A DNA stretch of 64,000 bases from a virus, in IMG/VR virus record IMGVR_UViG_3300021400_000042, one strand, 5' to 3'. The notes below the pieces were generated by a model that was given only the letters and a program-made list of their open reading frames with translations, searched no databases and was not told where the DNA came from. The position numbers were made by a program, and so were the translations under genes. Of this stretch, positions 7,766-63,020 are shown piece after piece; positions within the stretch are counted from its first letter, which is position 1, and every line of letters begins with the position of its first letter.

Positions 7766-10700
7766 ATGGCTGGAAAGAGCGACGGCTCTATAACGATTGA
7801 TACAAAACTGGATAATAGCGGTTTTTCCAGAGGATCGGATGAGCTGAAGCACGCCGTCAAGTCCCTGACAGATCAGGTGAACGAGACTGGAAGTAAGATC
7901 CAGAATGCGTTCAAGTTTGATTTTGGGCAGCCCAAACAGGCTGTCAATTCATTCTCACGAGCAATTAAGCAGGTCAATGATGAAATTCAGAGTCTTGGAG
8001 AGCTTGGACAGAGAGCGCTGGAAGGTGATGCGGATGCACTGGCACGGTTCCGGTCTGAAAGCGGGGAAACCCTGAGTAAGCTGGAAGAAATGAAGGCTGA
8101 ACTGGAAAAGTTCGGCAGTACGGAATTCATGACACCGGAATACGCGAAAGCTGCGGACCAGTACCAGAAAGCAGCTACACAGGTGGATGAACTGGCAAAG
8201 TCCCTGGAAAATGCAGAAGCCGCCTTTGAACAGCTGACAAATGATTTTGGCAGCTCCGAAGAATATACGGCACTGGAAGACCGGATAGATGTCCTGAAGA
8301 TGTATCAGAAGGAATACGAAGCTGCTATGAAGCGCGGTGACAGCGGCGCGGCAGCACAGGCCTTCATGAATTCAGGTGTGGGAAAAGGGACGATTGCGGA
8401 TGCGGTAAAAGAAGCAGAAGCAGAAATGCAGAAGCTCTGGGATAAGTTTGAAAACTCCACTCCGTACAGATCAGCTCAGAAAGAGATTGATAAGATCACG
8501 GCAAAACTGGAACAGGCGAAAGCACAGGCTGAACAGTATAAAGCCGAAATGGACGCGACTCCGGCAACGTTTGAAGGGTATGCGTCTACAGAGTATGAAA
8601 GAGATCAGGCCGCACTGGAAAGAACGATTGACCGGCTCCTGGAATACAGGCAGCTTGTCAGAGAAGGCGTAGGAAGCGACACAGCACCGTCGGCAGAATG
8701 GCAGGCGGTACAGGAACGTTGGCAAAACATGACTACCATGAGCGGTCTTATCCGTAATGCCTTTACCAGTCTTTTCAGCACGATTACAAGCGGAGCGCGT
8801 ACCGTAGGAAGCGCACTCAGCACGGGTATTACTCATCCGATTCAGCTTGTAGATCGTGCGCTTGGCGGCGTTGCTGTGGGTGCATGGAAAGCAGTTTCTT
8901 CCCTTGGAAGGCTTGCCGGCAATGCGATTGTAAGCGGCATTCAGAGGATAGCGAGTGCCGCGAGACAGGCAGCCGTACACCTGGCGGGAATGGCGAAAAG
9001 TGCCATCACGAACGGTCTGAAGAAGCTGGGTAACGCGATTGCCAATGTCGGAAAGAAATCAAAGAGTACAAACGTTTCTCTTTCCGGCGGATTTAAAACT
9101 ATGTTGAAGTACGGACTGGGTATTCGTTCCATGTTCGTACTTTTTAATAAATTGAGAAATGCAATCAAAGAGGGATTCGGCGCACTGGCAGAACAGGATG
9201 CAGCGTTCGGTCAGACCGTGAATAACTTCAAAGCAGCTCTCACAAACCTGAAAATGAGTTTTGCAGCGGCATTCGCTCCGATTGCAGAGACGGTATTGCC
9301 CATACTGACAAACCTCATCAATACACTGGCAACAGCAATATCGAAAATAGGTCAGCTTGTGGCGGCGCTGTCGGGGAAAACGACCTATAAAAGAGCGATC
9401 ACTTCTCAGGCGGCTATGGCCGATAACACTTCAAACGCGGCAGACGCGATGAAGGATGAATCGAAGGCCGCAAAGGAAGCACAGAAAACACTGGCCGGTT
9501 TTGATGACGTGGAAATCCTTCATGATAATTCGTCAAATCTGGATCAGGGACAGACAGCCGGGAACGGTGGCGGTGGTGGTTTTGAAGAACTGCCGATTGA
9601 CAGTAAATTCGCGGACCTTGCAAAGAAGCTCAAAGACATGTGGAAGAATGCAGATTTCACAGAGCTTGGCCGGATGCTTGGACAAGGGTTAAAAGATGCC
9701 CTGGATAAGATCCCGTGGGATTACATCAAACAGGTAGCGGCGAAACTGGGAAAGAGCATAGCTACACTGTTCAACGGCTTTCTGGAAGTGCCGGGACTGT
9801 TTACGACGATTGGAAAGACAATCGGAGAAGGTATCAATACGATATTTGAATTCCTGGATGCGTTCGCCTCTAACTTCCATTGGGCAAGTCTCGGACAGGC
9901 TATCAAAGATGCGATCCTCGGAATGCTCAATACGATTGACTGGCCGCTGATTTATCACACCATGGCAACATTCGGTGAGGGTATCGGGACAGCGCTTGAA
10001 ACAGCACTGAATAATCCGGAGATATGGACAGCCATATTCACGGCAGTCAGTAACGGCTTGAATTCGATTGTGTACGGTATTGATGCATTTCTGAAAGCAG
10101 TGAACTGGGGTGAGCTTGGCGCGAACATTGGAACCGGCCTGAATGCCGGCGTAGAGGCCTTTGATTGGAGCGCACTGTCACAGACGTTGATAGATCTGAT
10201 AAACGGCGCATTCGATCTGTGGTACAACTTTGTGACCACATTCGATTTTTATAAATTCGGGTCTCATATTGGTACAGCCCTGTCCGATGCAGTAAAGGGT
10301 ATCAACTGGACTGAGGGCGGTGCAAGCGTCGCACAGACGATTAACGGCCTGTTTGAAGCTCTGAATGGGTTTATACAGTCTACAGACTGGAAAGCCCTTG
10401 GAGCGGCGGTTATCGATGCCATAGGCGGCTTTTTCGGTGAGATTGACTGGGGAACCATGGCGGAAACGCTGTCCAGTGCGGCGATAGGCCTGTTGGATGC
10501 CCTCACAGGTGCATTTCAGGAAGTTGACTGGAAAGCGCTGCCCGGACAGATTACAGAGGCAATTAAGACGTTCCTGACAGAATTTGACTGGGCGGGAGTC
10601 GCAACGGCAGCAGGTGAACTGATCGGAGCGGCATTCACAGCACTGATTGAAGTCGGCGGGGAACTGTGGGAGTCCATGAAATCTGTCGGTAAGAACATCA

Positions 10701-12646
10701 TGGAAGGAGGTTTTCAGGGTATTATAGATGCCCTGGCAAGTGTCGGTGAATGGATAAAGACAAACATCTTCGATCCGTTCATTACCGGGTTTAAGACCGC
10801 GTTTGGTATTGAATCACCTTCTACGGAGATGATGCCGCTTGGCGGTTACATCATCGCAGGTATGCTGCAGGGTATTATCGACGGCCTTGTAAATATCGGG
10901 ACCTGGATCAAAACAAATATCGTGGATCCGTTCGTATCCGGCGTGAAGAGTATGTTCGGTCTGGACGGTGAGGAGTCCGTTCTGGTAAGCGTCGGTAAAG
11001 ACCTGATTGCCGGCCTGAAAGCCGGTATCGGGGCAGTCATGACCGGTATCAGCGATTGGATCAAAACTGTTATCGTGGATCCGTTTGTATCCGGTGTGAA
11101 AAGCATGTTCGGTCTGGATGGTGAAGAATCCGTGCTTGTCAGTGTTGGTAAAAACCTTCTGGAAGGTCTGAAGAACGGTCTGCTTGGAGCAATGGACGGT
11201 ATCGGTGATTGGATCGGTACGAATATTACCGGCCCTATCTGCGGATTCTTTAAGGACCTGTTCGGAATTGCCAGCCCGTCAACTGTATTCTCTGAATACG
11301 GTGGTTTCCTGCTTGCCGGTCTGAAAAACGGTCTGCTTGCGGCAATGGATGGTATCGGTGATTGGATTAGCACAAACGTAACCGGCCCCATCTGCGGATT
11401 TTTCAAAGATTTGTTCGGTATTAACAGCCCGTCAACCGTGTTCAATGAATACGGCGGATACCTTATGCAAGGTCTGGAAGGCGGTATTGACGAGAATAAA
11501 GAGCTTCCGAAAACAGCTCTGTCAAATGCTCAGACTTCCATGGAAACGGTATTCAGCGCACAGAAACAACTGCTTGCATGGGCGCAGGTCGGTAGCAACG
11601 TGATGTCCCTCGGATTAAGAGCAGGTATCCTGCTGAAGACACCGGCTGTCCTGGCCACAATCACTAAGCTGGAAGACGATATGCGAAAGGTCATCACAAA
11701 ACAGTTCAATACCTGGAAAACAGCGGCGGGAACACTGCTTGACAATTTTAAGAACGGATTGACCGGGAAACAGGCAACACTGATAACAACAGTCAATACG
11801 ATTATTACTGCACTGAAGACAAAAATTGATAGCTTCAAATCTCAGCTGAATAATTCCGGACGTGATCTGATGACGGATCTGCAGAATGGGATGAACAGCA
11901 TGAGCGGCAGCATCTCTTCTTCAGCAAGTAATATAGCAACCGGAATACATAACAGCTTCAATAACCAGAACTGGAATAATCTTGGGTACAACATCGGGAT
12001 GGGTATTTATAACGGTCTGGTATCTTCCGGAAGCTGGCTGTCTACGCTTGCATGGAATACAGCTGTAAACATGTACAATTCGGCTTGTCGCGCCTTGGGG
12101 ATTGCATCACCTTCCAAAGAATTTGCATGGATTGGTGAAATGATTACCAGAGGTCTGGGCGGCGGAATTGAGGCTACACAGGACAATGCGGTGAGTGCGG
12201 TCACATCCCTGGCGGATGCCGTGACGCAGGAAGCAGAAGACAGCAATCCGATTATGCACATCGATACGGCCGTGAATGGGATAGACAGTGTGCTTTCCAC
12301 ATTCTCTGACAAGGTAGTACAGAGCTTTGATGCGATGATCTCTGCAATGGAGAGTATTGTAAATGGCTCTTCTCTCACACTGCCTGCAATGGCAAACGGC
12401 TCTGTAATGCCGTATTCTGCCCGTAGGAGCGCTTCGCAGGATGAGGGGGATAAACTATCGTCCCTCATCGAAACACTGGCACAGCGGGACGCTGACAGGC
12501 TCACACGGGATGATCTGAGTGAAGTCCTTATCAATGTACTCAGGCAGTATTTGAACATTGATTTTTACATCGGTGATGAACAAATTGCAAGACACGCGAA
12601 CGCGGGAAACGCAAAACTGAATCGCCGGTACAGTACAGCAACATAA
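7766..12646 (+). CDS. tape measure protein
   Basis: 1626 aa with a coiled-coil N-terminus, hydrophobic Gly/Ala-rich segments and internal tandem repeats. Position is canonical. Confidence 0.9.
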   Translation: MAGKSDGSITIDTKLDNSGFSRGSDELKHAVKSLTDQVNETGSKIQNAFKFDFGQPKQAVNSFSRAIKQVNDEIQSLGELGQRALEGDADALARFRSESGETLSKLEEMKAELEKFGSTEFMTPEYAKAADQYQKAATQVDELAKSLENAEAAFEQLTNDFGSSEEYTALEDRIDVLKMYQKEYEAAMKRGDSGAAAQAFMNSGVGKGTIADAVKEAEAEMQKLWDKFENSTPYRSAQKEIDKITAKLEQAKAQAEQYKAEMDATPATFEGYASTEYERDQAALERTIDRLLEYRQLVREGVGSDTAPSAEWQAVQERWQNMTTMSGLIRNAFTSLFSTITSGARTVGSALSTGITHPIQLVDRALGGVAVGAWKAVSSLGRLAGNAIVSGIQRIASAARQAAVHLAGMAKSAITNGLKKLGNAIANVGKKSKSTNVSLSGGFKTMLKYGLGIRSMFVLFNKLRNAIKEGFGALAEQDAAFGQTVNNFKAALTNLKMSFAAAFAPIAETVLPILTNLINTLATAISKIGQLVAALSGKTTYKRAITSQAAMADNTSNAADAMKDESKAAKEAQKTLAGFDDVEILHDNSSNLDQGQTAGNGGGGGFEELPIDSKFADLAKKLKDMWKNADFTELGRMLGQGLKDALDKIPWDYIKQVAAKLGKSIATLFNGFLEVPGLFTTIGKTIGEGINTIFEFLDAFASNFHWASLGQAIKDAILGMLNTIDWPLIYHTMATFGEGIGTALETALNNPEIWTAIFTAVSNGLNSIVYGIDAFLKAVNWGELGANIGTGLNAGVEAFDWSALSQTLIDLINGAFDLWYNFVTTFDFYKFGSHIGTALSDAVKGINWTEGGASVAQTINGLFEALNGFIQSTDWKALGAAVIDAIGGFFGEIDWGTMAETLSSAAIGLLDALTGAFQEVDWKALPGQITEAIKTFLTEFDWAGVATAAGELIGAAFTALIEVGGELWESMKSVGKNIMEGGFQGIIDALASVGEWIKTNIFDPFITGFKTAFGIESPSTEMMPLGGYIIAGMLQGIIDGLVNIGTWIKTNIVDPFVSGVKSMFGLDGEESVLVSVGKDLIAGLKAGIGAVMTGISDWIKTVIVDPFVSGVKSMFGLDGEESVLVSVGKNLLEGLKNGLLGAMDGIGDWIGTNITGPICGFFKDLFGIASPSTVFSEYGGFLLAGLKNGLLAAMDGIGDWISTNVTGPICGFFKDLFGINSPSTVFNEYGGYLMQGLEGGIDENKELPKTALSNAQTSMETVFSAQKQLLAWAQVGSNVMSLGLRAGILLKTPAVLATITKLEDDMRKVITKQFNTWKTAAGTLLDNFKNGLTGKQATLITTVNTIITALKTKIDSFKSQLNNSGRDLMTDLQNGMNSMSGSISSSASNIATGIHNSFNNQNWNNLGYNIGMGIYNGLVSSGSWLSTLAWNTAVNMYNSACRALGIASPSKEFAWIGEMITRGLGGGIEATQDNAVSAVTSLADAVTQEAEDSNPIMHIDTAVNGIDSVLSTFSDKVVQSFDAMISAMESIVNGSSLTLPAMANGSVMPYSARRSASQDEGDKLSSLIETLAQRDADRLTRDDLSEVLINVLRQYLNIDFYIGDEQIARHANAGNAKLNRRYSTAT
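10742..11480 (+). repeat. about five tandem ~45-50-aa repeats inside the tape measure (W-I-x-T-N-I-x-x-P-F/I…G-L-K-x-G)
   Basis: Two near-identical pairs are visible in the translation (WIKTNIVDPFVSGVKSMFGLDGEESVLVSVGK twice; WIGTNITGPICGFFKDLFGI.SPSTVF.EYGG twice). Confidence 0.85.
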
Positions 12647-16838: not shown

Positions 16839-19800
16839 ATGATTATTCATGAATTTGATCTGGACATGATACCTGGTGGTAACGTGCCGTCAATCAGGGT
16901 GAATCAGTATGATGAAGATTTCAACCTGAAGATCAACCTGTTTTCCAGAAACGGGAATTTCTCTGTCCTCAGTGGCACAACCGCCCTGGTAAGAGGAACA
17001 AAGCCGGATGGAAATGCCTATTCTGCGGAAGCCTCCGTCAACGGGACCGTTGTTACCGTGACCGGAAATCAGCAGATCACAGCGGCAGCAGGCAGAGCGA
17101 TCTTTGAAATTTCCCTCCGCAGGAACGGAAGAGAACTGAATACGGCAAACTTTGTCATTGATATTGAGCAGGCGGCCATGGATAAGGATACCGTTGCATC
17201 CACGTCCGTTGTCAGAGAGCTTGTCGATATTATGGATAACTCTGAGGAAATCATCAATGCGGGTCAGCAGTATGAGAATTCTCAGAGGGCGATGGAGGAA
17301 CTGACTGCGAGATCTGAAGCGGCTGCTGAAACAGCAACCACGATGAAGACGCAGACGGAGGAAATCGCTACACAGACTGCTGAGAAATGGACAGAAGTCT
17401 CTGAACAGATGGACCGTAAATCTGCAGCTATCGCTACTCTGGTATCCAATGCGGATCAAGTGGCGGCAGAGGCATCTGAAAAGGCCGGCAATGCTCTGAA
17501 CGAGGCAGCGGAAGTATCCAACAGCCTTGAAGACATTCAGGGGAAAGTTACCGCTCTGGAACTGGGGCAGAACAACTATGTTGCGGATGGTTATGTGGAA
17601 GACGAAGAGGCCGTTTTTGTCGATAAGGACGGAAACGAGATGTTCCGTATTACGGGCATCGGCGGATCCGGCGGCGGTGGCGGAAGTTCTGACCAGACCG
17701 TGAAATCCCAGGTTACCATGGACAACATGACTGGATGGCTTTCCAAAACGATTGCTGCAGGTGCGGAATGCCCGGTATCCTTTGTATGGTCCTCCACGAT
17801 GGAAGGCATCCCGACCGGAAACGGCGTTGTCAGTGTGACTGTCAACAACGTGGTAAAGGCCACTATGGACGTTGCACAGGGAGCCGTAGAGATTGACCTG
17901 ACTCCGTACATGACTGCAAGCGTGAACCGTGTCGAAGTTCGTGTAACAGATATTGAGGGTCAGTACAAGAGGATCAATTACAGTATCACGATCATGCAGC
18001 TATCTCTCAGCTCCACATTCGACGTGGCCACACCGTATACCGGTGCTATCCCGTTCCCGTACACTCCGATTGGTGCGGTACAGAAGACCGTGCATTTCAT
18101 CCTGGATGGTACGGAAATCGGCACTCAGCAGACCTCCGTAACCGGCAGACAGATGACCTATACGATCCCGGCACAGGCCCACGGCGGCCACTCTATCAGA
18201 GTTTACTTTGAGGCAGAGATCAATGGTGAGACGGTGCGCTCCAATGAGCTGTACTATGAATTCACCTGCCTGGAAGCGATGAGCGATGAAGTCATCATCA
18301 CGAGTCCGTACAATCAGGCTACACAGCCGCAGTATACGTCCATCGCTATTCCGTTCACGGTTTACGATCCGGTATCCCCGACGGCCGAAGTCAAAATCTA
18401 TGCAAACGGTGAGCTGCTTTCTACTCAGACGGTTGACAGATCTGAACAGTCCTATACCTACAGGGCAACAGAGGCCGGTCCGCTGGTAATTGAGATCAAG
18501 AGCCATGAAACGACCAAAACCTTCAATATCGAGATCACCGAATCTGATGTCCATGCGGAAGCAGAGACGGAAAACCTTATGCTCTTCCTGTCTTCTCAGG
18601 GCAGAAGCAACAATGAGGAAAATCCGTGGACATGGGTTTCCAATGTTGGAGAGAACGATGTCAGTGCAGTTCTTTCCGGCTTCAATGGCGCGTCTGATGG
18701 ATGGCAGACCGATGAGAGCGGTATTACCTGCCTGCGCGTGACCGGCGGTGCAAGAGTCCAGATCCCGTATCAGATTTTTGCTGCTGACGCGAGAAGAACA
18801 GGTCTTACCTTTGAGATCGAGTATGCAACCAGAAACGTGTCTGATTACAACGCGACGATCCTTTCCTGCATGAATGGCGGCAGAGGACTTGAAATCACTC
18901 CGCAGAGAGCAACACTGAAGTCTGAACAGACCGAACTGTACATGCAGTACAAAGAGGGCGAACATATCCGCGTTGCCTATACCATCGGCAAGAGATCTGA
19001 AAACCGTCTGGTGAAGAGCTATATCGATGGTAAGATTGCGAGGGTTACACAGTATCCGGATGATGATGACTTTGCACAGGTAGCGCCCGTTGGAATTTCT
19101 ATCGGTTCCGATAACTGCACAATCGATATCTACTGCATCCGCGTATACACCAATGACCTTACCGCAAATCAGGTCATGGACAACTGGATTGCTGACACAC
19201 AGGACGGATCCCTGATGCTTGAAAGATATGCGAGGAACCAGATTTTCGATGCATATGGTCAGGTAGTTCCGGGACAGCTGCCGTCCAACCTTCCTTACAT
19301 GATTATCGAGTGCGAGGAGCTGCCGCAGTACAAGGGCGATAAGAAGACAGTGAATGTATCCTATACGGATCCGCTGTATCCGAGTCATTCCTTCACGGCA
19401 GAGAAGGTACAGGCGAACGTCCAGGGTACATCTTCCGCCCCGTATGCAGTGAAGAACCTTGACCTGCAGTTCAAGGGCGGCTTTGAGATGACCACAACCG
19501 GCCATTCCAAACTGTACAGACTGAGAGACGATTCCATGCCGACGGCAAGGTTCGTTCTGAAGGCTGACGTGGCCTCTTCCGAGTCCGCAAACAATACGCA
19601 GCTGGTAAGACTGTACAATGACCTTTGCCCGTATAAGACTCCGGAAATGGAGGAAGATGAGAGAGTCCGTTGGGGTATCGATGGTATCCAGATTGTCATG
19701 TTCTGGCGTGACACGGTGACCGGAGATCTGCACTTCAAGGGCAAATACAATTTCAACTTCCCGAAGAGGTTCCCGGAGGGGTACGGCTACACAGAGGATC

Positions 19801-22800
19801 AGGAGTCCTGGGAGTGGCAGAACAACACTTCCGACCGTATGCTTTTCAAGTCTGATGACTTTGACAGCATTTATACGGATCCGGAGACTCTGGAACAGTT
19901 CCCGGCATGGAAGAACGACTTTGAAGCACGTTTCCCGGAAGATACCTGGGAAGATATCGACAAACTGAAAGAGTGGATCAGCTGGGTAGTATCTACAGAC
20001 CGCGATCAGGCTACAGGTGATGCTCTTGAAGCTCCTGTAACCTATGACGGAACTGAGTACACTGCCGATACTGCGGAATATCGTCTGGCGAAGTTCAAAG
20101 CAGAACTGGCGGATTATGCAGAGGTTGACACTCTGATTTTCTACTATGTATGGACAGAATTCTTCCTGATGGTAGACTCCCGTGCAAAGAACCTGTTCAT
20201 GGGCTTCCATGGCAGCCCGTGTGAGATCGAGGGTAGCGCGATTGATCGTAAGATCGTCGCAGAGCCTTACGATATGGATACCGGCCTGGGAACCAACAAT
20301 GAAGGTACTCTGACATACACCTACAGTCTGGAAGATCTGGACACGATTGCCGGCGCGGATGTTTTCAACGGACAGCACTCTGTACTGTGGTGCAACCTGA
20401 GAGATACGCACAGAGCCGCAATCGTCAACATGTATCAGACGCTCCGTTCCTCCGGCGGCCTTAACTACAAAGCAGTTGAGAAGCGCTATGAGGATGCACA
20501 GAATATCTGGCCGGAAGCAGTCTGGAATGAAGACGGAAGGATCAAATATACCGATCCTCTGACCAATCCGGAGACCGGTAAAGAACCGACGGCCTTCTAT
20601 CTTCCCATGGCACAGGGATCAAAGGAGCAGCAGCGTAAATGGTGGCTGGGTAACCGTTTCGCGTACATGGACAGCAAATGGAATGCCGGTGATGCACTGG
20701 CACAGGTCATTCAGCTTCGTGGCTATGCAAAAGCGGATATCACGGTTACACCTTACATTGACCTGTATCCGACGGTCAAATATGGATCCTACCTGGTACA
20801 GCAGAGAGGTACGGCGGGGACACCTGCTACACTGGCCTGCCCGATGGATTCTGTGAATGATACTGAGATCTATATTTACAGTGCGCCGCAGATTGCAAGC
20901 GTGGGCGATCTGTCCGGGCTGAAAGTCGGTGTCGCTGACTTCTCTCAGGCTACAAACATTCAGGAGGTCAAACTGGGTGATGCGGATCCGAGTTACGAAA
21001 ACAACAACATGAAGCGTCTGAGCTTCGGCAGCAACGTTCTTCTGAAGAAGATCGATGTCCGGAACTGTGCGATGCTTGGAACCGACGAACAGAAGAGCGT
21101 GGACGTTTCCAACTGCGCTATTCTGGAAGAGGCTTACTTCGACGGCACAGCTATTCAGGGTCTTTCCCTTCCGAATGGCGGCGTGCTGAGAGTGCTGCAC
21201 GTACCGGCTACAATGTCGAACCTGACGATCAGGAACCAGAAGAACCTTGCAGAGTTTGTTATCCCGTCCTACAGCAATATCTCGACGTTGTGGCTGGAAA
21301 ACAACAGCGCCGTGATTGATACTCTGGATATTGTGAAGAAGGTTCCGGCAAATGCCCGTATCCATCTGGTAGGGGTAGCGTGGGAAGCGGCTGACGCGGC
21401 AGAGATCAGAACCGTCCTGGATCTTCTTGATACAATGAGAGGTCTGGATGACTACGGCAACAACCAGGATCAGGCGTATGTTTCCGGATCCATCCACACA
21501 AGCAGCCTGACCGGTGCTGAAGTGGCGGAGTTTGAAGGCAGATACCCGTATCTGAAGATCCTTGCTGACCACACAACGTCTTACCGCACCTATGCGGATT
21601 ATGACGGTACAGAGCTGAAGAAGGTTGCTTGCATCGACGGCGTACCGCAGGAGAGCGCACCGGCCAATCCGTCTAGGGCGCAGACAGCTCAGTACAGCTA
21701 TTCCTTCGTGGGATGGTCTAAGAGCATGAACGCTGAGACAGCGGACTCTGATGCACTGGATAACGTGATTGCTGACAGGACGATCTATGCGGCCTACAGC
21801 AAGACCGTGAGGGAATACACCGTAACATGGAAGAATGCGGATGGAACCACTCTCAGAACGGATACGCTGAAATATGGCGCAACACCGTCCTGGGGACAGG
21901 CTATGCCGACCAATTCCAGCGGCCAGACGGCACAGGGATGGACACCGACGATCAGCACGGTCACCGGTAACGCAACCTATACCGCGTCCTACATTCCGGT
22001 ATACAACGTATACTTCTACAACGGTACGACGCTGCTGAAGGAACAGCAGGTACAGCAGGGTGGAAATGCTACACCGCCGAGTGAAACACCTGTGAGCGCG
22101 GACGGTCCGGATTATGAATTCACCGGATGGCTGCCGGGGTACACGAACATTCAGGGTAACACTTCCTGCTATGCACAGTTCAAAGCTCCGAGTGCTGTGA
22201 AGGAAATCACGGATGACTGGGCAACCATTGTCTCAAAGATTGCGAACGGCACGGCAAATTACCAGGTAGGTAACTACAAGCCTCTGGACCTTGGTACAGA
22301 GGGCGTTGTCAATATGCAGATCGTTGGTAAGAATACCAGTCCTCTTGCATCCGGCAGCGGAACAGCTACTTATGACTGGCTGAGTATGGAACTGCTTGCA
22401 ACTGACCATAGAATGAACCCGTCCAACAACAATAACGCTGAAGGAACCGGGTCTATCGGTGGTTGGGAGAAGTGTGAAATGAGGAAGTACCTCAAAGAGA
22501 CCATTAAGCCGCTCATACCTGAGACGGTTAGAAATGCAATCAAAGAGGTTACGAAGTATTCGCGTATCTTTGATACAAGCGGAACTGCAGTCAACGATGT
22601 GGCATCGACAGAAGATGTCTGGATCCCGTCCAAACGTGAAATGTTTGGTGCAATCAGTAATGCAGAGACGATGGGACCGATCTATGACGGAATCTTCACG
22701 GATAATGCAAGCCGTGTGAAGAAGAAAGTAGGCGCGTCCAGCGCCTCGTTCTGGTGGTGCCGGTCCGCTGGTACCAACCATGGCTTCAGTGGTGTGAACA

Positions 22801-22868
22801 GCAGCGGCGGCAATAGCTATAACGGCGCGAGCAACTCCTACCCGCTGGCCCTGGGCTTCTCAATTTAA
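16839..22868 (+). CDS. giant receptor-binding / tail fibre protein; DGR target 1
   Basis: 2009 aa. Segments read by eye: BppU-N-like anchor, coiled coil, Gly linker, LamG-like segment, a CotH-like segment (DSRAKNLFM…EPYDMDTGLG), an LRR-like segment, and Listeria-Bacteroides-type repeats (YTVTWKNADGTTL…). The C-terminal domain ends …FWWCRSAGTNHGFSGVNSSGGNSYNGASNSYPLALGFSI, which is the VR. Confidence 0.9.
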   Translation: MIIHEFDLDMIPGGNVPSIRVNQYDEDFNLKINLFSRNGNFSVLSGTTALVRGTKPDGNAYSAEASVNGTVVTVTGNQQITAAAGRAIFEISLRRNGRELNTANFVIDIEQAAMDKDTVASTSVVRELVDIMDNSEEIINAGQQYENSQRAMEELTARSEAAAETATTMKTQTEEIATQTAEKWTEVSEQMDRKSAAIATLVSNADQVAAEASEKAGNALNEAAEVSNSLEDIQGKVTALELGQNNYVADGYVEDEEAVFVDKDGNEMFRITGIGGSGGGGGSSDQTVKSQVTMDNMTGWLSKTIAAGAECPVSFVWSSTMEGIPTGNGVVSVTVNNVVKATMDVAQGAVEIDLTPYMTASVNRVEVRVTDIEGQYKRINYSITIMQLSLSSTFDVATPYTGAIPFPYTPIGAVQKTVHFILDGTEIGTQQTSVTGRQMTYTIPAQAHGGHSIRVYFEAEINGETVRSNELYYEFTCLEAMSDEVIITSPYNQATQPQYTSIAIPFTVYDPVSPTAEVKIYANGELLSTQTVDRSEQSYTYRATEAGPLVIEIKSHETTKTFNIEITESDVHAEAETENLMLFLSSQGRSNNEENPWTWVSNVGENDVSAVLSGFNGASDGWQTDESGITCLRVTGGARVQIPYQIFAADARRTGLTFEIEYATRNVSDYNATILSCMNGGRGLEITPQRATLKSEQTELYMQYKEGEHIRVAYTIGKRSENRLVKSYIDGKIARVTQYPDDDDFAQVAPVGISIGSDNCTIDIYCIRVYTNDLTANQVMDNWIADTQDGSLMLERYARNQIFDAYGQVVPGQLPSNLPYMIIECEELPQYKGDKKTVNVSYTDPLYPSHSFTAEKVQANVQGTSSAPYAVKNLDLQFKGGFEMTTTGHSKLYRLRDDSMPTARFVLKADVASSESANNTQLVRLYNDLCPYKTPEMEEDERVRWGIDGIQIVMFWRDTVTGDLHFKGKYNFNFPKRFPEGYGYTEDQESWEWQNNTSDRMLFKSDDFDSIYTDPETLEQFPAWKNDFEARFPEDTWEDIDKLKEWISWVVSTDRDQATGDALEAPVTYDGTEYTADTAEYRLAKFKAELADYAEVDTLIFYYVWTEFFLMVDSRAKNLFMGFHGSPCEIEGSAIDRKIVAEPYDMDTGLGTNNEGTLTYTYSLEDLDTIAGADVFNGQHSVLWCNLRDTHRAAIVNMYQTLRSSGGLNYKAVEKRYEDAQNIWPEAVWNEDGRIKYTDPLTNPETGKEPTAFYLPMAQGSKEQQRKWWLGNRFAYMDSKWNAGDALAQVIQLRGYAKADITVTPYIDLYPTVKYGSYLVQQRGTAGTPATLACPMDSVNDTEIYIYSAPQIASVGDLSGLKVGVADFSQATNIQEVKLGDADPSYENNNMKRLSFGSNVLLKKIDVRNCAMLGTDEQKSVDVSNCAILEEAYFDGTAIQGLSLPNGGVLRVLHVPATMSNLTIRNQKNLAEFVIPSYSNISTLWLENNSAVIDTLDIVKKVPANARIHLVGVAWEAADAAEIRTVLDLLDTMRGLDDYGNNQDQAYVSGSIHTSSLTGAEVAEFEGRYPYLKILADHTTSYRTYADYDGTELKKVACIDGVPQESAPANPSRAQTAQYSYSFVGWSKSMNAETADSDALDNVIADRTIYAAYSKTVREYTVTWKNADGTTLRTDTLKYGATPSWGQAMPTNSSGQTAQGWTPTISTVTGNATYTASYIPVYNVYFYNGTTLLKEQQVQQGGNATPPSETPVSADGPDYEFTGWLPGYTNIQGNTSCYAQFKAPSAVKEITDDWATIVSKIANGTANYQVGNYKPLDLGTEGVVNMQIVGKNTSPLASGSGTATYDWLSMELLATDHRMNPSNNNNAEGTGSIGGWEKCEMRKYLKETIKPLIPETVRNAIKEVTKYSRIFDTSGTAVNDVASTEDVWIPSKREMFGAISNAETMGPIYDGIFTDNASRVKKKVGASSASFWWCRSAGTNHGFSGVNSSGGNSYNGASNSYPLALGFSI
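22735..22862 (+). repeat. DGR variable repeat 1 (VR1)
   Basis: 128 nt colinear with TR 23463-23590. All about 14 body mismatches fall on TR adenines (AAY codons). The 3' end reads GGGCTTCTCA versus TR GGGATCCTCA (IMH versus IMH*). Confidence 0.9.
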
Positions 22869-57588: not shown

Positions 57589-58209
57589 ATGTCATATAGA
57601 CAGCAGCGGGACTATGAGAACCTGAATAAAGCGATATTCGATGGAGTGGGTGAGTATGACATTCCGGTCATCGAACCAGACAGTCCGCAGGTTGATAACT
57701 GGATCAGTTTCAACTATGCGAAAGGGTGCGAGGAACCGGAGATACACGGCATCCACTTTTTCATTGACGATTATCAGTTTGTCCGTGTCTGGAAGCAGCC
57801 GGATGTTTACCTGGATATGCTGAGAAAGTTTCAGGCAGTATGCACGCCTGACTTTTCCACGTATACAGACTTTCCGAAGACGATACAGCTGTATAACCAC
57901 TATCGGAAGCACTGGTTAGGTGCGTACTGGCAGATGAACGGGATCCGGGTGATACCTACCATCAGCTGGGCGGATCGGGACAGCTACGAATGGTGTTTTA
58001 CCGGTGAGCCGGAAGGCTACACGGTCGCGGTCAGTAGCGTTGGAACGCAGGGCAGTCAGGAGACACGACAGTTATTTCTGGACGGATATCGGGAAATGAT
58101 GACCAGGCTGCAGCCGCAGAGGATCATCATGTATGGCAACGTACCGGATGAATGCCAGGGAAATATTATTCCCGTCAAAGCGTTTCAGCAGAAATGGAGG
58201 AATGGCTAA
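57589..58209 (+). CDS. DUF4417 domain protein
   Basis: …IHFFIDDYQFVRVWKQPDVY…PDFSTYTDFP…YRKHWLGAYWQMNGIRVIPT… matches my recollection of DUF4417. ATG follows GGTGGAGG. Confidence 0.65.
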   Translation: MSYRQQRDYENLNKAIFDGVGEYDIPVIEPDSPQVDNWISFNYAKGCEEPEIHGIHFFIDDYQFVRVWKQPDVYLDMLRKFQAVCTPDFSTYTDFPKTIQLYNHYRKHWLGAYWQMNGIRVIPTISWADRDSYEWCFTGEPEGYTVAVSSVGTQGSQETRQLFLDGYREMMTRLQPQRIIMYGNVPDECQGNIIPVKAFQQKWRNG

Positions 58210-58823
58210 TGGGCGGTCGTGGGGCAAGTTTTACCACAGCCAGAGAAATAGTCGGACAGTATGAGTTGACGGATATAACCGACAGTAAATCAAAGATTGT
58301 CAGTTTCTTCCGTGACATTGATAAGAACGGCGGTATTCGAGTTGATGAAGAGGCCGGAAAGATCAAAGTCACGAAGTCAGCAATGCAGAAGGCACGGGAT
58401 CTGGCAGATGAGCTTTCTGAAAGAATGGTCGAAAGGGATGAACAATCCCTGAGAGATTACAGAGATATCCGTCAGATAATGAATGGTGAGTATTCGATCA
58501 GCGATCAGGACCGCAGTAACATTCCTGATTTCAATGCTTATGTCCGGTCGAGTGAGAATTTCATAAAGATCCGGCGCAATGGTATGAGCATTGACACAGC
58601 ATATCAGGAACTTGCGTCCATGTATCCATATTACTTTGATGCAGACCGGGTAACCAATCCTGCGGATCAGCTGCAGGACATTAACCGTGTCCTGGCAGAT
58701 CTGAAGAACAGCACGCGACAGATACCGCGTGAATACCGGCAGGAAGCGGCGGATGACTTGCGAACTACCATTATCCGGGGTTATATCGCACTGCAGTACA
58801 GGAAGGGGCGCAGGACGGCATGA
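58209..58823 (+). CDS. MGGRG-leader protein 1 (function unknown)
   Basis: Starts MGGRGASF; TAATG overlap; RBS GGAGGA. Confidence 0.6.
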   Translation: MGGRGASFTTAREIVGQYELTDITDSKSKIVSFFRDIDKNGGIRVDEEAGKIKVTKSAMQKARDLADELSERMVERDEQSLRDYRDIRQIMNGEYSISDQDRSNIPDFNAYVRSSENFIKIRRNGMSIDTAYQELASMYPYYFDADRVTNPADQLQDINRVLADLKNSTRQIPREYRQEAADDLRTTIIRGYIALQYRKGRRTA

Positions 58824-58954
58824 CGGAGAAAAGCAAGACTGATATCAGCAAGGCAGTCGAAACGGTGATGAGAAAATGCGGTGTAACTATTCCTGACAGG
58901 ATAAAAGAGTATACCGTAGAAGAGGAAGATGACAAAACGGTTGAAAAAAGTTGA
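58820..58954 (+). CDS. possible 44-aa acidic protein
   Basis: ATGA overlap; below the track cutoff. Confidence 0.3.
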   Translation: MTEKSKTDISKAVETVMRKCGVTIPDRIKEYTVEEEDDKTVEKS

Positions 58955-58977
58955 CTGTTTACACAGGAGGTGCTATC

Positions 58978-59631
58978 ATGGGAGGTAGAGGAAGTGGAAG
59001 CGGATTAAAACAAAGCGACGGCCCTCGTGGAGGTGGCGGCGGTGATACAAAATGGAATCAGCCGAATACGCCACAAATGCGGCCGCCGGCCCCGAATATC
59101 AGAGGGGTCATAGGCGCGAAAGGCAAGCCTATATCCGCCACACAAGCAGTTAAAAGCATCAATCCTTTCAGAGATGCTGAGTATGGCGATTACAGCGAGA
59201 ATTGCCAGCGTTGCGTTGTTGCTTTTGAGCTGAATCGAAGAGGTTACAAAGTAGAGGCAGAAGCGACGTGGGAGAATGATACATACCCGCGTGGAAACCA
59301 TTGGCTGTCCGCATTTAAAGGCGGAAAGCTGGAAGATGTTGGCGCTCGTAACACAGCGGCGATCAATAAAAACATTCTTTCAAAAATGGGATCTTGGGGT
59401 GAAGGTTCCAGGGCTATTGTCAAAGTACAGTATCCCGGAGGCAATTCAGGGCATGTATTCAATGTTGAATACCATCGGGGAAAACTTTATTATTACGACG
59501 CTCAAACCGGCGTTTCGTATAAAAACCGAACGGTGTTTGACCATGTTGTAAAGGGTAACGTCCAAATCGTTAGAAGCGATAATCTTGATATTGCCGATAA
59601 TGTTAGGGATATGGTGAGAAAGCGCAGGTAA
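58978..59631 (+). CDS. MGGRG-leader protein 2: papain-fold toxin-like (glutamine-deamidase/transglutaminase-type) domain
   Basis: Starts MGGRGSGSG, then a Gly/Pro linker. Candidate Cys in SENCQRCVVAFELNRRG and candidate His in NSGHVFNV…YYDAQTG. RBS AGGAGG. Confidence 0.55.
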   Translation: MGGRGSGSGLKQSDGPRGGGGGDTKWNQPNTPQMRPPAPNIRGVIGAKGKPISATQAVKSINPFRDAEYGDYSENCQRCVVAFELNRRGYKVEAEATWENDTYPRGNHWLSAFKGGKLEDVGARNTAAINKNILSKMGSWGEGSRAIVKVQYPGGNSGHVFNVEYHRGKLYYYDAQTGVSYKNRTVFDHVVKGNVQIVRSDNLDIADNVRDMVRKRR

Positions 59632-59653
59632 GGTAACCAGTTAGGAGGCAAAC

Positions 59654-59884
59654 ATGGGGACTAAAGAAGCTATCGAAAAAGCCAAAAAATTAAATCCAAA
59701 TTATAACAAGTGTGTTGAGCATTCAAACGCGTGGGCATTTAGCCGTGACGATGATGAAGAACGCGTCGGAGGGCCGGATGCAGGTATCGTTATCATGAAA
59801 GATGACGGGCGCGTGCTTAGAATGTACGAGTATTACATGACAGATCTTGGTGAGAGTGAAATCATAAGCGAACAGAAGATCTGA
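59654..59884 (+). CDS. small protein following the toxin-like gene (immunity-like position)
   Basis: 76-aa ORF with RBS AGGAGG. Confidence 0.5.
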   Translation: MGTKEAIEKAKKLNPNYNKCVEHSNAWAFSRDDDEERVGGPDAGIVIMKDDGRVLRMYEYYMTDLGESEIISEQKI

Positions 59885-59900
59885 CACAGAAAGGCGTAAA

Positions 59901-60485
59901 ATGGGCGGTAGAGGCGGTTCATTCACCAGTGTTGGTGAAAGCATCGCATACAGAAACGCCTTAAATGCAGCGGAAAACGGGATAAAGCGTGATAGGGTTG
60001 AAACAGCTATCCTTCTGGACAAAGACGGGAATACCATTTTCACCGAGTCACAGGGCAGTGCTGATTCGGTACAATTCTCACCGGATCAGTTCAATCAAAT
60101 GAAGGACGGCACGCTCACGCACAATCATCCGAGTGGATCAACCTTCAGTTGGCAAGATCTTGACTTGCTGGTGCGAAGTGGATTGAAAGAGATCCGCGCC
60201 ACATCTGCAAACAGGACGTATCGAATGATAGACCTTGGAGGATCCTTCTCTGGAAAAGGAAATTTTCCACAGGATTTCTTTAACGCTTATCAGGCCAACA
60301 AAGCTGTATGCGATGCGAAATATCAGAAGATCGAAAACAATTACAATTCAGGAGCCATATCATACAATGAGTATGCTGACCAGTGTTCAAACCTCAATAA
60401 AGAGCTGAACATGATGAACAGTAAATGGTTAAGGTCAAATGCTCGATTGTATGGATACAGGTATGAAATGATCGGGAGGAACTGA
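59901..60485 (+). CDS. MGGRG-leader protein 3: JAB/MPN (RadC-like) metallopeptidase-like domain
   Basis: Starts MGGRGGSF. JAMM-like motif THNHPSGSTFSWQDL with an upstream Glu (RVETAILLD). Confidence 0.55.
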   Translation: MGGRGGSFTSVGESIAYRNALNAAENGIKRDRVETAILLDKDGNTIFTESQGSADSVQFSPDQFNQMKDGTLTHNHPSGSTFSWQDLDLLVRSGLKEIRATSANRTYRMIDLGGSFSGKGNFPQDFFNAYQANKAVCDAKYQKIENNYNSGAISYNEYADQCSNLNKELNMMNSKWLRSNARLYGYRYEMIGRN

Positions 60486-60486
60486 T

Positions 60487-60645
60487 ATGCCTAAAACAAA
60501 AGACGGCGGATATTTATTACATGAACCGGATGCAGCGGCCGGCCCGTATGCTCCGAAGGCAAAAGAAGAGGAAAAGAAGTCCGGAAAGGGTAAAAAACCC
60601 GGAACGGTGAAGAGATCAGGAAACAAGCGAACAGGAAAGAAGTAA
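60487..60645 (+). CDS. possible 52-aa Lys-rich protein
   Basis: MPKTKDGGYLLHEPDAAAGPYAPKAKEEEKKSGKGKKPGTVKRSGNKRTGKK*; below the track cutoff. Confidence 0.3.
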   Translation: MPKTKDGGYLLHEPDAAAGPYAPKAKEEEKKSGKGKKPGTVKRSGNKRTGKK

Positions 60646-60680
60646 AACCCTCTACCACATACGGCGGAGGGTTTCTTTAT
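60646..60680 (+). terminator. rho-independent terminator
   Basis: AACCCTC…GAGGGTT followed by TCTTTAT. Confidence 0.55.
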
Positions 60681-60705: not shown

Positions 60706-61233
60706 ATGGCGTTCGCAAAGGGGAATCAGTACGGCAAAAAGCCGAAGTATAAGACACCCGAAGAAATACAGGAAAAAATAGATGCATACTTTGAGGAGTG
60801 TAAAGGTACACTCCTTGAAGATCATAACGGAGATCCGATCATTGACAGGTGGGGCAATCCGGTATATCTGGACAGGAAGCCGCCCACGGTCACGGGGCTG
60901 GCGCTTGCCCTGGGATTTAAAACGCGCCGCGCCTTAATGCTCTATCAGGCAAAGAAAGAGTTCATGGACGTGATACTGGAAGCGAAGTCCCGGATAGAGA
61001 TGTACAACGAAGAACAGCTCTTTTCCCGCGACGGGTCCAGAGGCGCACAGTTCTCTCTGCAGCATAACTTCCAGGGGTGGCAGGAAGAGAAGGAAGACGA
61101 TAAGAAAGGTGCAGCGGTCAATATCATCAATGATATTCCGAAGGGGACTGTCACGGTGAACACGGACACGGCGGTGTTCAATGCATTGCAGAAGCCGGAG
61201 GATGAAGCTACACAGGATGCCGGCGAAGAGTAA
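60706..61233 (+). CDS. terS: terminase small subunit
   Basis: MAFAKGNQYGKKPKYKTPEEIQEKIDAYFEEC…PPTVTGLALALGF… is typical of TerS. It is adjacent to TerL. Confidence 0.75.
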   Translation: MAFAKGNQYGKKPKYKTPEEIQEKIDAYFEECKGTLLEDHNGDPIIDRWGNPVYLDRKPPTVTGLALALGFKTRRALMLYQAKKEFMDVILEAKSRIEMYNEEQLFSRDGSRGAQFSLQHNFQGWQEEKEDDKKGAAVNIINDIPKGTVTVNTDTAVFNALQKPEDEATQDAGEE

Positions 61234-62476
61234 CCTTTCCGGGGTTCGTCTCACAGACCTGATAGCCCCGGCGTTCTATCCCGTGTACTGGGACGTAAGA
61301 GAGGGGAACCATACATATTACGATCTGTACGGCGGTCGAGGATCCACAAAATCATCCTTTATCAGTCTGGACCTGGTAATGGGTATCATGGAGGATCCGG
61401 CAGCGAATGCAGCTGTCTTCCGTAAAGTGGCAAGCACTATCGGGACATCTGTATTTGAACAGGTTTTGTGGGCGATCAATGCGTTAGGTGTGGAAGAACT
61501 GTGGAAGACCACAACCAATCCATACAAGGCCACGTATAAACCGACGGGGCAGGTTATATTATTCCGAGGCCTGGATAAAGCCAAAAAGCTGAAGTCCATC
61601 AAAGTATCACGCGGATATCTGAAATATCTGTGGTTTGAAGAACTTGACGAGTTTTCAGGCGAAGAAGAGATCCGATCTGTACAGCAGTCAGTCCTCCGAG
61701 GCGGCCCGAAATACGTTGTATTCAAGTCCTTCAACCCGCCGATCAGTAAATCAAACTGGGCGAATAAATACGTCCTGAAGCCGCACAGAGGCGCGTACAG
61801 GCACAAATCCTGTTATCTGGATGTGCCGCGTGACTGGTTAGGACAGCAGTTCTTTGATGATGCGGAAGATCTGAAGAACACGAATTATCGTGCCTATCAG
61901 CATGAGTACCTGGGGGATGCCGTCGGAACTGGCGGTGAAGTCTTTGACAACCTGGAAATCAGGGCAATCACTGACGCGGAGATTGCGAGTTTTGCCAATA
62001 TTTACATGGGTATTGACTGGGGCTGGTTCCCGGATCCGTACCACTGGGGCAAAATGAACTATGATGCAGCCCGTAGGACCTTATACATCTACGATGAAAT
62101 GCGGTGCTGGAAGACATCGAATGCAGAGACCTGGAACCGGCTTGTTATGCAGCACGGCGTAACGAGTCAGGATCTTATCACTGCGGATTCTGCGGAAAAG
62201 AAATCTGTCGGAGACTATCGTGATTATGGCTCTCTGTGCCGGCCGGCAATCAAAGGTCCGGACAGTGTGCGGTATGGTATGAAATGGCTGCAGTCTTTAG
62301 TAAAGATTGTCATTGATCCGTACCGATGCCCGTATACGGCGCAGGAGTTTACAGAGTATGAGTATGAACGGACAGACGATGATGAGATAATCAGCAGCTA
62401 TCCGGATGCAAATAACCATAGCATTGATATGACCAGATATGCTATGGAACGCGTATATAAGCGCAAAGGCCAGTAA
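61217..62476 (+). CDS. terL: terminase large subunit (PBSX-type)
   Basis: Walker A-like GGRGSTKS, …WFEELDEF…, and a nuclease half with …DWGW.PDP…. The start is set at the internal ATG 61217. Confidence 0.9.
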   Translation: MPAKSNLSGVRLTDLIAPAFYPVYWDVREGNHTYYDLYGGRGSTKSSFISLDLVMGIMEDPAANAAVFRKVASTIGTSVFEQVLWAINALGVEELWKTTTNPYKATYKPTGQVILFRGLDKAKKLKSIKVSRGYLKYLWFEELDEFSGEEEIRSVQQSVLRGGPKYVVFKSFNPPISKSNWANKYVLKPHRGAYRHKSCYLDVPRDWLGQQFFDDAEDLKNTNYRAYQHEYLGDAVGTGGEVFDNLEIRAITDAEIASFANIYMGIDWGWFPDPYHWGKMNYDAARRTLYIYDEMRCWKTSNAETWNRLVMQHGVTSQDLITADSAEKKSVGDYRDYGSLCRPAIKGPDSVRYGMKWLQSLVKIVIDPYRCPYTAQEFTEYEYERTDDDEIISSYPDANNHSIDMTRYAMERVYKRKGQ

Positions 62477-62566: not shown

Positions 62567-62649
62567 GGGTGAGTGTGCCGAGAGGCGAAGGCAGCGGACT
62601 GTAAATCCGTGACAGAGAAACACCGGTGGTTCGATTCCACCTTCACCCA
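62567..62649 (+). tRNA. tRNA-Tyr (anticodon GTA), class II with a long variable arm
   Basis: Acceptor GGGTGAG/TTCACCC, anticodon arm GCGGA-CTGTAAA-TCCGT, T arm GGTGG-TTCGATT-CCACC, discriminator A, no encoded CCA. Confidence 0.85.
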
Positions 62650-62792
62650 CGATGCCCTCCGAGGTCTGCGGACCGGCGGTGAAAGCTCATTCTTTTTGGA
62701 GATTATGAGAAAGGCTACACAGTAAAAAGAGTTTTACTTTTCCCGTCGTTGTGGTAGAATCTTTTTATCACAATATGAGGGAGGCGTTTATA

Positions 62793-63020
62793 GTGGCAAA
62801 CTATGTAACGATCACGTCAGATAAGAGCAAAAAGACAGCTTATCTGATTTGCCTCTTTACCGGAATGTTCGGCGGTCATTACTATTACGTCGGGCGAACG
62901 ATGAGAGGATTACTTGCAACATTCACTTTGAATTTTGCATTCATCGGTTGGATTCTGGATCTCCGGAAGATCCGGAAAGGAAAATTCAAAGACAATGTTG
63001 GTCAATATTTGAGGCAGTGA
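62793..63020 (+). CDS. TM2-domain membrane protein (moron)
   Basis: …AYLICLFTGMFGGHYYYVGR…FIGWILDL…. GTG 62793 is 8 nt after GAGGGAGG (the track starts further upstream). Confidence 0.6.
   Translation: MANYVTITSDKSKKTAYLICLFTGMFGGHYYYVGRTMRGLLATFTLNFAFIGWILDLRKIRKGKFKDNVGQYLRQ

Follow-up and report, generated by a model that had tools for sequence, protein, structure and literature searches.

Why should three neighbouring phage genes encode proteins that share their first residues and nothing else? The question is raised by a locus in IMG/VR virus record IMGVR_UViG_3300021400_000042, of which a stretch of 64,000 nucleotides (the window) was analysed here. Between a DUF4417 gene and the terminase genes lie three open reading frames (ORF1, ORF2 and ORF3, starting at positions 58209, 58978 and 59901) that begin MGGRGASF, MGGRGSGSG and MGGRGGSF, starts that had been picked out in an earlier note made from the letters alone and that we confirm, each with its own ribosome-binding site. 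The recurrence of this N-terminal tag on unrelated toxin-like proteins suggests an undescribed address label for phage effectors, and the tagged genes are regarded here as a variant form of phage polymorphic-effector system, defined by a nine-residue N-terminal motif. The earlier note had held that a split, tagged version of known phage effector proteins was undescribed; in keeping with this, the literature searched for MGGRG, LQFFGG, DUF4417 and mycobacteriophage-toxin virion proteomics contained no description or mention of the tag. The variants with a Prp-type leader, the link to DUF4417, the small ORFs paired with the tagged genes and the spread of the tag far past this phage go beyond that note.

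The tag and its position

In a six-frame translation of all 64 kb the string MGGRG occurs only three times, within 1.7 kb and always as one of these starts, and chance is excluded as their source; the shorter string GGRG occurs ten times in the whole window. Each ATG lies 6-8 nucleotides 3' of a ribosome-binding site (GGAGGA, AGGAGG or GAAAGG), and that of ORF1 overlaps the stop codon of the DUF4417 gene (TAATG). The earlier note had allowed that the true starts might lie upstream, leaving MGGRG internal, and an in-frame extension is indeed possible for ORF1 and ORF2 of the window. In sister phages an in-frame stop, 0-1 codon ahead of the methionine, precludes any such extension of the tagged ORFs, and thus MGGRG is the true start.

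Three collection scans, all of which give lower bounds, place tagged genes in at least several hundred viral contigs. The pooled loci comprise 210 unique tagged proteins with 32 unrelated body clusters, and the consensus that follows the methionine, or a longer leader, is GGRG-[GAS]-[SG]-S-G-[LI]. GGRG is present in all 210 proteins, a figure that is not an independent measure of conservation because GGRG was the selection criterion, while S7 and G8 are found in about 70%. The tag is kept in the families of all three window proteins: MGGRG opens 30 of the 32 homologues of ORF3 and 22 of the 34 homologues of ORF1, and in two of the ORF1 family RLQWF or NLQYF stands directly before GGRG. Among the 120 homologues of ORF2, a glutamine deamidase, that were listed, 53 start with MGGRG, 24 with M-x(2-8)-(N/D)LQ(F/L)F-GGRG and 17 with a basic M-x-GGRGG variant (MAKGGRGGKRGG).

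The observation that the three starts use different codons, so that the motif is kept as protein, holds well outside the window. Across tagged genes the arginine of the tag is encoded by AGR (59%) or CGN (41%), the serines by both AGY and TCN, and glycine codons vary freely at the third position. By this evidence selection on the tag acts at the protein level, and recent DNA duplication or a DNA-level signal was ruled out as the origin of the tag. In the AlphaFold2 model of ORF3 the predicted local distance difference test score (pLDDT) is below 50 for residues 1-11, against a mean of 91.5, and the tag of this model is thus a disordered, exposed linear motif. The arrangement is that of polymorphic toxins, with a conserved N-terminal region followed by variable C-terminal domains, except that the shared part is a nine-residue motif and not a domain. 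That the tag is a selected N-terminal recognition motif is, in our view, very probable.

Many homologues start not with M-GGRG but with M-x(0-8)-(N/D)LQFF-GGRG. A scan of viral contigs for N-L-Q-F-F-G-G-R-G returned at least 120 contigs, and in all 120 listed the string lies no more than 44 codons from the upstream stop and opens an ORF of 60-240 residues. This leader is the same as the P-side sequence of the site cleaved by the Firmicutes protease Prp, whose published motif, MLxx(D/N)LQ(F/L)F'A(S/H)KK (PMC9405229), is found in the precursor of ribosomal protein L27 (pre-L27) and in phage 80alpha capsid and scaffold proteins. M-GGRG and leader-GGRG members occur together in eight body clusters; since the two forms interchange within families, the tag appears to be tied to N-terminal processing. 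Methionine aminopeptidase acts when the second residue is glycine, and removal of the methionine in one form or cleavage of the leader in the other is therefore predicted to yield the same exposed GGRG N-terminus. The conserved element would then be the exposed GGRG end, the removal of both methionine and leader being predicted from sequence. The earlier proposal of a targeting or processing signal stands to the extent that the tag is a selected protein-level N-terminal signal linked to N-terminal processing; its targeting half is weighed below. The window proteins themselves start directly with MGGRG and carry no Prp-type leader. As to a restriction of the leader to taxa that possess Prp, matches with the leader are mostly in Clostridia, although three are in metagenome-assembled genome bins labelled Bacteroidales, for which the binning of phage contigs is unreliable. 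A separate case is gp19 of the Streptococcus pneumoniae phage phiBHN167 (locus L213, 3563-4309), which follows a ParB-DUF4417 fusion and contains KINFTLGGGRGANF about 66 codons into the annotated ORF, reflecting either a misplaced start or a different kind of leader.

Tagged proteins, their partners and their genomic slots

The bodies that follow the tag are unrelated to one another, as had been claimed, and each can now be assigned to some degree. ORF2 matches the Pfam family Gln_amidase (PF15644) over residues 75-178 (E 2.9e-14; 54.6 bits against a cut-off of 24.1). ORF3 has no Pfam match, and its profile found only noise among PDB sequences. In 22 sequences of its family E34, H74-x-H76, S83 and D86 are invariant, a pattern that conforms to the E...HxH...S..D metal-site motif of JAB/MPN proteins, and the top Foldseek matches of its model are JAMM1 (5lda_A), RadC (2qlc) and the JAB1/MPN protein AF2198. 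Probabilities reach 1.0 (JAMM1), but the E values are weak (0.012 for JAMM1) and the TM-score on the target is 0.51. Because invariant metal-site residues and the structural matches of an alignment-based AlphaFold2 model coincide, we regard ORF3 as JAB/MPN-like. ORF1 matches phrog_22978 at profile positions 2130-2269 of 3513, and phmmer finds it inside proteins of 2000-4300 residues; on these two grounds it corresponds to a domain of polyvalent proteins. A tblastn search with ORF1 against isolated phages gave no match, and NCBIfam and PADLOC matched none of the cassette proteins. Among the tagged proteins at large, the recognised toxin families are Gln_amidase and an ADP-ribosyltransferase, ADPrib_exo_Tox (PF03496); there is also a Zn-protease-like body, most bodies have no family match, and many end in very basic tails. 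Six untagged homologues of the ORF1 domain (P0196, P0197, P0201, P0206, P0208 and P0209) share a different N-terminus, M..(I/L)LKFNPYHD(R/K)LGRF, which may serve this cargo domain as an N-terminal address of another kind.

Each tagged ORF of the window is followed by a small ORF (44, 76 and 52 residues, respectively). The 76-residue ORF has a weak match to Imm-NTF2-2 (E 0.034), which is below the Pfam cut-off, and the Lys-rich 52-residue ORF has no family match. A small ORF is also present 3' of a MuF-fused toxin in phage Fontainebleau, and the one that follows gp2 of phage Piro94 is annotated as 'immunity protein'. Such a cognate small ORF, present after many tagged genes, probably encodes an immunity protein or inhibitor. 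Sister contigs with identical TerL differ in what they carry between DUF4417 and terS. In some of them the deamidase and the 76-residue ORF are replaced by a tagged, 220-residue paralogue of ORF3 and a 56-residue acidic ORF; likewise ORF1 and the 44-residue ORF can be replaced by a tagged protein of 102 residues. Every large ORF in this slot of the sister phages starts with MGGRG, and the small ORFs move with their upstream partners, as toxin-immunity pairs do. It is likely, therefore, that these are polymorphic effector cassettes.

The earlier note had proposed a search of other phages for MGGRG ORFs near terminase genes, and such ORFs were found in two settings, beside terS and after the portal gene. 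In the first, a DUF4417 gene is followed by tagged ORFs and then by terS. At 70 of the 106 leader-motif loci listed, a DUF4417 gene stands one or two genes ahead of the first tagged ORF. In the reverse direction, 70 of the 78 listed viral contigs that were found through DUF4417 have between one and four tagged ORFs in the next 3.5 kb downstream, with one immediately adjacent in 61; at one apparent exception (locus L198) homologues of the same bodies are present with degenerate tags. The layout holds at a DUF4417 identity of only 33-38% and is found in Streptococcus phage A25, in Mycobacterium phages Piro94, XianYue and Itos and in Gordonia phage Nebulosus. In four actinophages the gene after DUF4417 starts with MGGRG and has an immunity-like gene after it, and in three it bears the annotation 'VIP2-like toxin'; in Mycobacterium smegmatis phages gp1 is DUF4417, gp2 an MGGRG toxin and gp3 an immunity-like protein. 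In the A25 and Str01 phages (tagged genes at locus L125, 4001-4411, which is NC_028697 positions 11357-11767, and at locus L208, 2501-2911) the public start is an internal methionine 27 nucleotides downstream of the true start, MGGRGASSGMSDKG, which is preceded by a ribosome-binding site. The tag is missing from the deposited proteins YP_009191530 and APZ81907 because of this displacement.

DUF4417 itself has the invariant residues H56, D60, D61, D88, S90, N103, R106 and Q115 in 131 sequences. Its profile found nothing among PDB sequences, and a single-sequence AlphaFold2 model was unusable (mean pLDDT 39.6). A ParB_N-DUF4417 fusion precedes a gene with the MAKGGRGG variant, and no fusion of DUF4417 to an effector (of the Rosetta-stone type) occurs among 172 DUF4417 genes. 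Two orphan tagged toxin genes, one after an endolysin gene and one chromosomal (L206, 11549-11722; L216, 5637-6008), are immediately preceded by a remnant of the C-terminal part of DUF4417 (E 8e-13 and 0.003), and tagged copies after endolysin genes are often truncated.

The second setting came from a tag-first scan, for a ribosome-binding site followed by MGGRG, of which the matches listed comprise 38 loci with DUF4417 upstream and 53 without, some of the 53 being chance or MGGSG matches. At 27 of 40 DUF4417-less loci examined, in another group of phages, the start of the tagged ORF overlaps the stop codon of the portal gene (for example L274, on the reverse strand, and L300), and this slot holds at least eight different bodies. 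The gene order at L300 is portal, two tagged ORFs, an ORF on the opposite strand, a MuF-like gene, an ORF that probably encodes the scaffold and a capsid-like gene. In view of the many post-portal tagged ORFs without DUF4417 in this sample, DUF4417 was ruled out as an obligatory partner, common though it is; what the tagged loci share is a place in the module of terminase, portal and head genes. A single portal family shared by tagged phages was also sought and was not found: most portals are SPP1-like, one is of the HK97 type and some have no family match. Tagged phages include gut Clostridia phages, streptococcal phages such as the Streptococcus pyogenes phage A25, and Mycobacterium and Gordonia phages.

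Readings of the tag

Several known systems resemble the tagged cassettes in part. In isolated phages, namely Acutalibacter phage Fontainebleau and phages of Arthrobacter and Microbacterium, MuF-like or minor head proteins end in the toxin domain of ORF2, and MuF-VIP2 fusions are on record as predicted virion components (PMC7302621). On account of these deamidase MuF fusions and of the ADP-ribosyltransferase or VIP2-like tagged proteins, the tagged proteins share the repertoire of MuF toxins and polyvalent proteins. With the MuF polymorphic toxins (Jamet et al. 2017, PMC5576092) they have in common phage-borne toxin domains, variable C-termini, a small immunity-like ORF downstream and a place in the packaging and head module. 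The tagged polypeptides, however, contain no MuF domain (the three window ORFs have no Pfam match to PF04233 or PF06152, and the MuF-like gene of the window, Phage_min_cap2, is separate, at 71-1219); they share a nine-residue motif rather than a domain, and their usual place is upstream of terS or after the portal gene. Polyvalent proteins (Iyer et al. 2017, PMC5512222), which have been proposed to be effectors that enter with the DNA, draw on JAB/RadC-like and papain-like peptidases as well as ADP-ribosyltransferases, and the ORF1 domain lies inside such proteins too. The suggestion in the earlier note that the window enzymes resemble modules fused in such proteins was thus borne out, as the domains recur either there or on MuF head proteins. 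Polyvalent proteins combine at least two effector domains, whereas each tagged protein carries one, the window proteins being single-domain proteins of 194-217 residues. Neither the MuF-toxin paper (PMC5576092), which mentions neither DUF4417 nor the glycine motif, nor the polyvalent-protein paper (PMC5512222), from which the motif and DUF4417 are likewise absent, describes the tag. The idea that GGRG generally joins domains, or is a cleavage site between them, in polyvalent proteins was ruled out, there being no GGRG at the borders of the ORF1 domain in its giant homologues.

The leader M-x-(N/D)LQ(F/L)F of many homologues is shared with the Prp-processed L27 protein and the capsid and scaffold proteins of 80alpha (PMC9405229, PMC9261936). 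The site in the homologues is followed by glycine (GGRG) and not by alanine (A-S/H-K-K), the window proteins are leaderless, and the capsid and scaffold proteins of the window phage have no Prp-type leader. The S8-PTS three-component systems (PMC9424270) likewise combine a conserved accessory gene, a shared toxin N-terminus, variable toxin domains and immunity genes. In contrast with these systems, the tagged one is phage-borne and intracellular, has no signal peptide, BetaH domain or S8 peptidase, and includes DUF4417 frequently rather than obligatorily. A further parallel would lie in phage heads, where packaging has been demonstrated for T4 and P1. The internal proteins of T4 carry a short N-terminal capsid targeting sequence on unrelated cargo that is packed into the head and injected, the sequence being removed by the prohead protease, and the Dar proteins of P1 are loaded in an ordered manner. 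The tag is unrelated in sequence to these signals, and a prohead protease gene is not evident in the window phage.

We favour the explanation that the cassettes represent a large, unannotated class of phage accessory effectors, defined by an N-terminal linear motif and not by a shared domain, in which the tag is a packaging or virion address. It is the likeliest of the readings considered, and we give it about an even chance. Removal of the initiator methionine or cleavage of a leader by Prp would expose the GGRG end, and the disordered tag would serve as an address peptide recognised by a packaging or head-assembly component. The effectors would be made late in infection, loaded into virions and delivered with the DNA, such that loading through the tag would be the non-covalent counterpart of the fusion of toxins to the MuF minor head protein. 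Interchangeable bodies would follow the tag, among them glutamine deamidase, JAB/MPN peptidase, ADP-ribosyltransferase, Zn-protease-like and polyvalent-protein domains. The address function, considered by itself, falls a little short of an even chance, and encapsidation with co-injection is suggested by gene position, beside terS or after the portal gene, and by analogy with the MuF fusions. A broader proposal, in which the tag is a general cargo-loading peptide of siphophages with Firmicutes and Actinobacteria hosts, read by the packaging or head machinery once it is exposed, DUF4417 acts as the loader in many lineages and whatever protein bears the tag is packed and injected with the DNA, seems doubtful to us. 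On that proposal the tag would let phages carry exchangeable toxins and enzymes against host defences into the cell, phage effectors would become a third class of substrate of host Prp, and the tag could be reused for delivering proteins of choice.

Several observations weigh against a virion address. Known Prp substrates carry alanine at P1' (PMC9405229), whereas the leader-type homologues carry glycine. The variant MAKGGRGGKRGG (MAKGGRGG) retains two residues ahead of GGRG, and a free N-terminal glycine is thus not absolutely required. Virion proteomics of phage Str01 by liquid chromatography-tandem mass spectrometry (12 proteins, PMC6195288) included neither the tagged protein APZ81907 nor DUF4417 (APZ81899) while detecting holin, TerS and amidase; as the filters were stringent, a low-copy protein could have escaped. 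Portal types are mixed among tagged phages and no recognition partner was identified, DUF4417 is absent from many tagged phages (up to 12 kb upstream was checked), and some tagged genes sit after endolysin genes or in bacterial chromosomes.

The neighbour that most invites another explanation is DUF4417, although we are sceptical that it is a direct partner of the tag. As an enzyme or chaperone it could act on the GGRG end of the effectors so as to modify them (acylation, nucleotidylation or ligation, for instance), to process them, or to switch them on or hold them in check, which would make the tag a matter of regulation in the producing cell and not of packaging. The two-way association, which persists to 33-38% identity and across phages of Firmicutes and Actinobacteria, fits this explanation, as do the start/stop overlap suggestive of translational coupling, the invariant polar residues expected of an active site, the fusions to the NTP-binding ParB_N fold and the piece of DUF4417 retained by orphan tagged genes, which are themselves often truncated. 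The many post-portal tagged ORFs with no DUF4417 within the upstream distance checked and the lack of effector fusions among the 172 genes speak against it, however, and adjacency could reflect the conserved flank of a recombination hot spot; overall we consider it unlikely. Hot spots would also account for the cassettes if the tag were merely a generic, flexible Gly/Arg/Ser-rich tail of the RGG-box type, active in nucleic-acid binding or solubility, with no dedicated partner and shuffled from one ancestor. Long Gly-rich, RGG-like stretches do often follow the tag (for example GGRGGGSGRGGGSGRG and the actinophage linkers), many bodies have very basic tails and the slots are classic variable ('moron') positions. 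Such a tail, however, would have no use for a Prp-type leader placed exactly so as to regenerate the same end, nor would it explain why GGRG is fixed at the very N-terminus across two phyla despite synonymous codon turnover, or why the ORF1 domain lacks GGRG at its borders in giant polyvalent proteins. This makes a generic tail quite improbable.

There is, finally, the view that the amino-acid motif is a by-product of a DNA or RNA element, either a G-rich translation enhancer immediately past the start codon or a TerS or ParB-like site near pac. The motif is indeed G-rich (GGNGGNMGNGG) and is repeated near terS. Its codon families switch, however, between AGR and CGN for arginine and between AGY and TCN for serine at positions 6-7, leader-type genes place it 6-16 codons past the start, conservation continues as the amino-acid classes [GAS][SG]SG[LI], and the motif spans genomes of very different G+C content, all of which leaves a nucleic-acid element scarcely credible.

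If the tag is an address label, it would mark a new and widespread family of phage-delivered effectors that is recognisable from nine residues. Dozens of 'hypothetical' genes beside terminase or portal genes could then be annotated, systematic errors in start-codon choice that conceal the tag (A25 and Str01 are examples) could be corrected, and DUF4417 would gain a testable functional context. New substrates are also suggested for Prp, an essential host protease, and the tag could become a means of placing foreign proteins in phage particles.

Features of the window

The coordinates of the cassette and its flanks are collected in Table 1. The start of the DUF4417 gene was set by gene calls in sister contigs. 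The position of the cassette between DUF4417 and terS, as given in the earlier note, is upheld by Pfam matches to both flanks. The terminator with which it was said to end needs correction: what is present is a moderate hairpin with a U-tract, which a simple terminator consensus scan missed.

Table 1. Positions of the tagged genes, their tags and the flanking features in the window
Feature	Coordinates	Strand	Remarks
DUF4417 gene	57589..58209	+	206 aa; PF14386, E 3.8e-58; conserved upstream flank of cassettes
Tag of ORF1, M-GGRGASFT	58209..58235	+	
Tagged effector 1 (ORF1)	58209..58823	+	204 aa; start MGGRGASF
Small acidic ORF paired with effector 1	58820..58954	+	44 aa; gene called in sister contigs
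Tag of ORF2, M-GGRGSGSG	58978..59004	+	
Tagged effector 2 (ORF2)	58978..59631	+	217 aa; tag, Gly-rich linker, papain-fold glutamine deamidase toxin domain
Immunity-like ORF paired with effector 2	59654..59884	+	76 aa
Tag of ORF3, M-GGRGGSFT	59901..59927	+	
Tagged effector 3 (ORF3)	59901..60485	+	194 aa; JAB/MPN (RadC-like) metallopeptidase-like domain, then helical hairpin
Small Lys-rich ORF (MPKTKDGGY...KRTGKK)	60487..60645	+	52 aa; 3' of effector 3 in all sister phages
Terminator-like hairpin and U-tract	60646..60680	+	between cassette region and terS; folding free energy -16.4 kcal/mol, z -2.0
Small terminase subunit, terS	60706..61233	+	PF16677, E 4.8e-15; phrog_606; downstream flank of variable slot
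Large terminase subunit, terL	61181..62476	+	PF04466, E 8e-39

The window seems to be a whole, circularly permuted phage genome (features at 71-1219, 3358-4428, 7766-12646 and 16839-22868); its first gene is that of the MuF-like minor capsid protein, after which come the capsid and tape-measure genes and an ORF of 2009 residues, and the sister contigs are 54-64 kb long. The gene after Phage_min_cap2 is also variable at loci L001-L004 (for example L002, 15960-16415): some sisters have a Sequestin-domain ORF of 151 or 187 residues there, and another has an unrelated ORF of 105 residues. Two tRNA genes were found, one for tRNA-Leu at 38611-38708 and one for tRNA-Tyr at 62567-62650, the latter with terL on one side and a small TM2-domain ORF (62751-63020) on the other, ahead of the portal gene.

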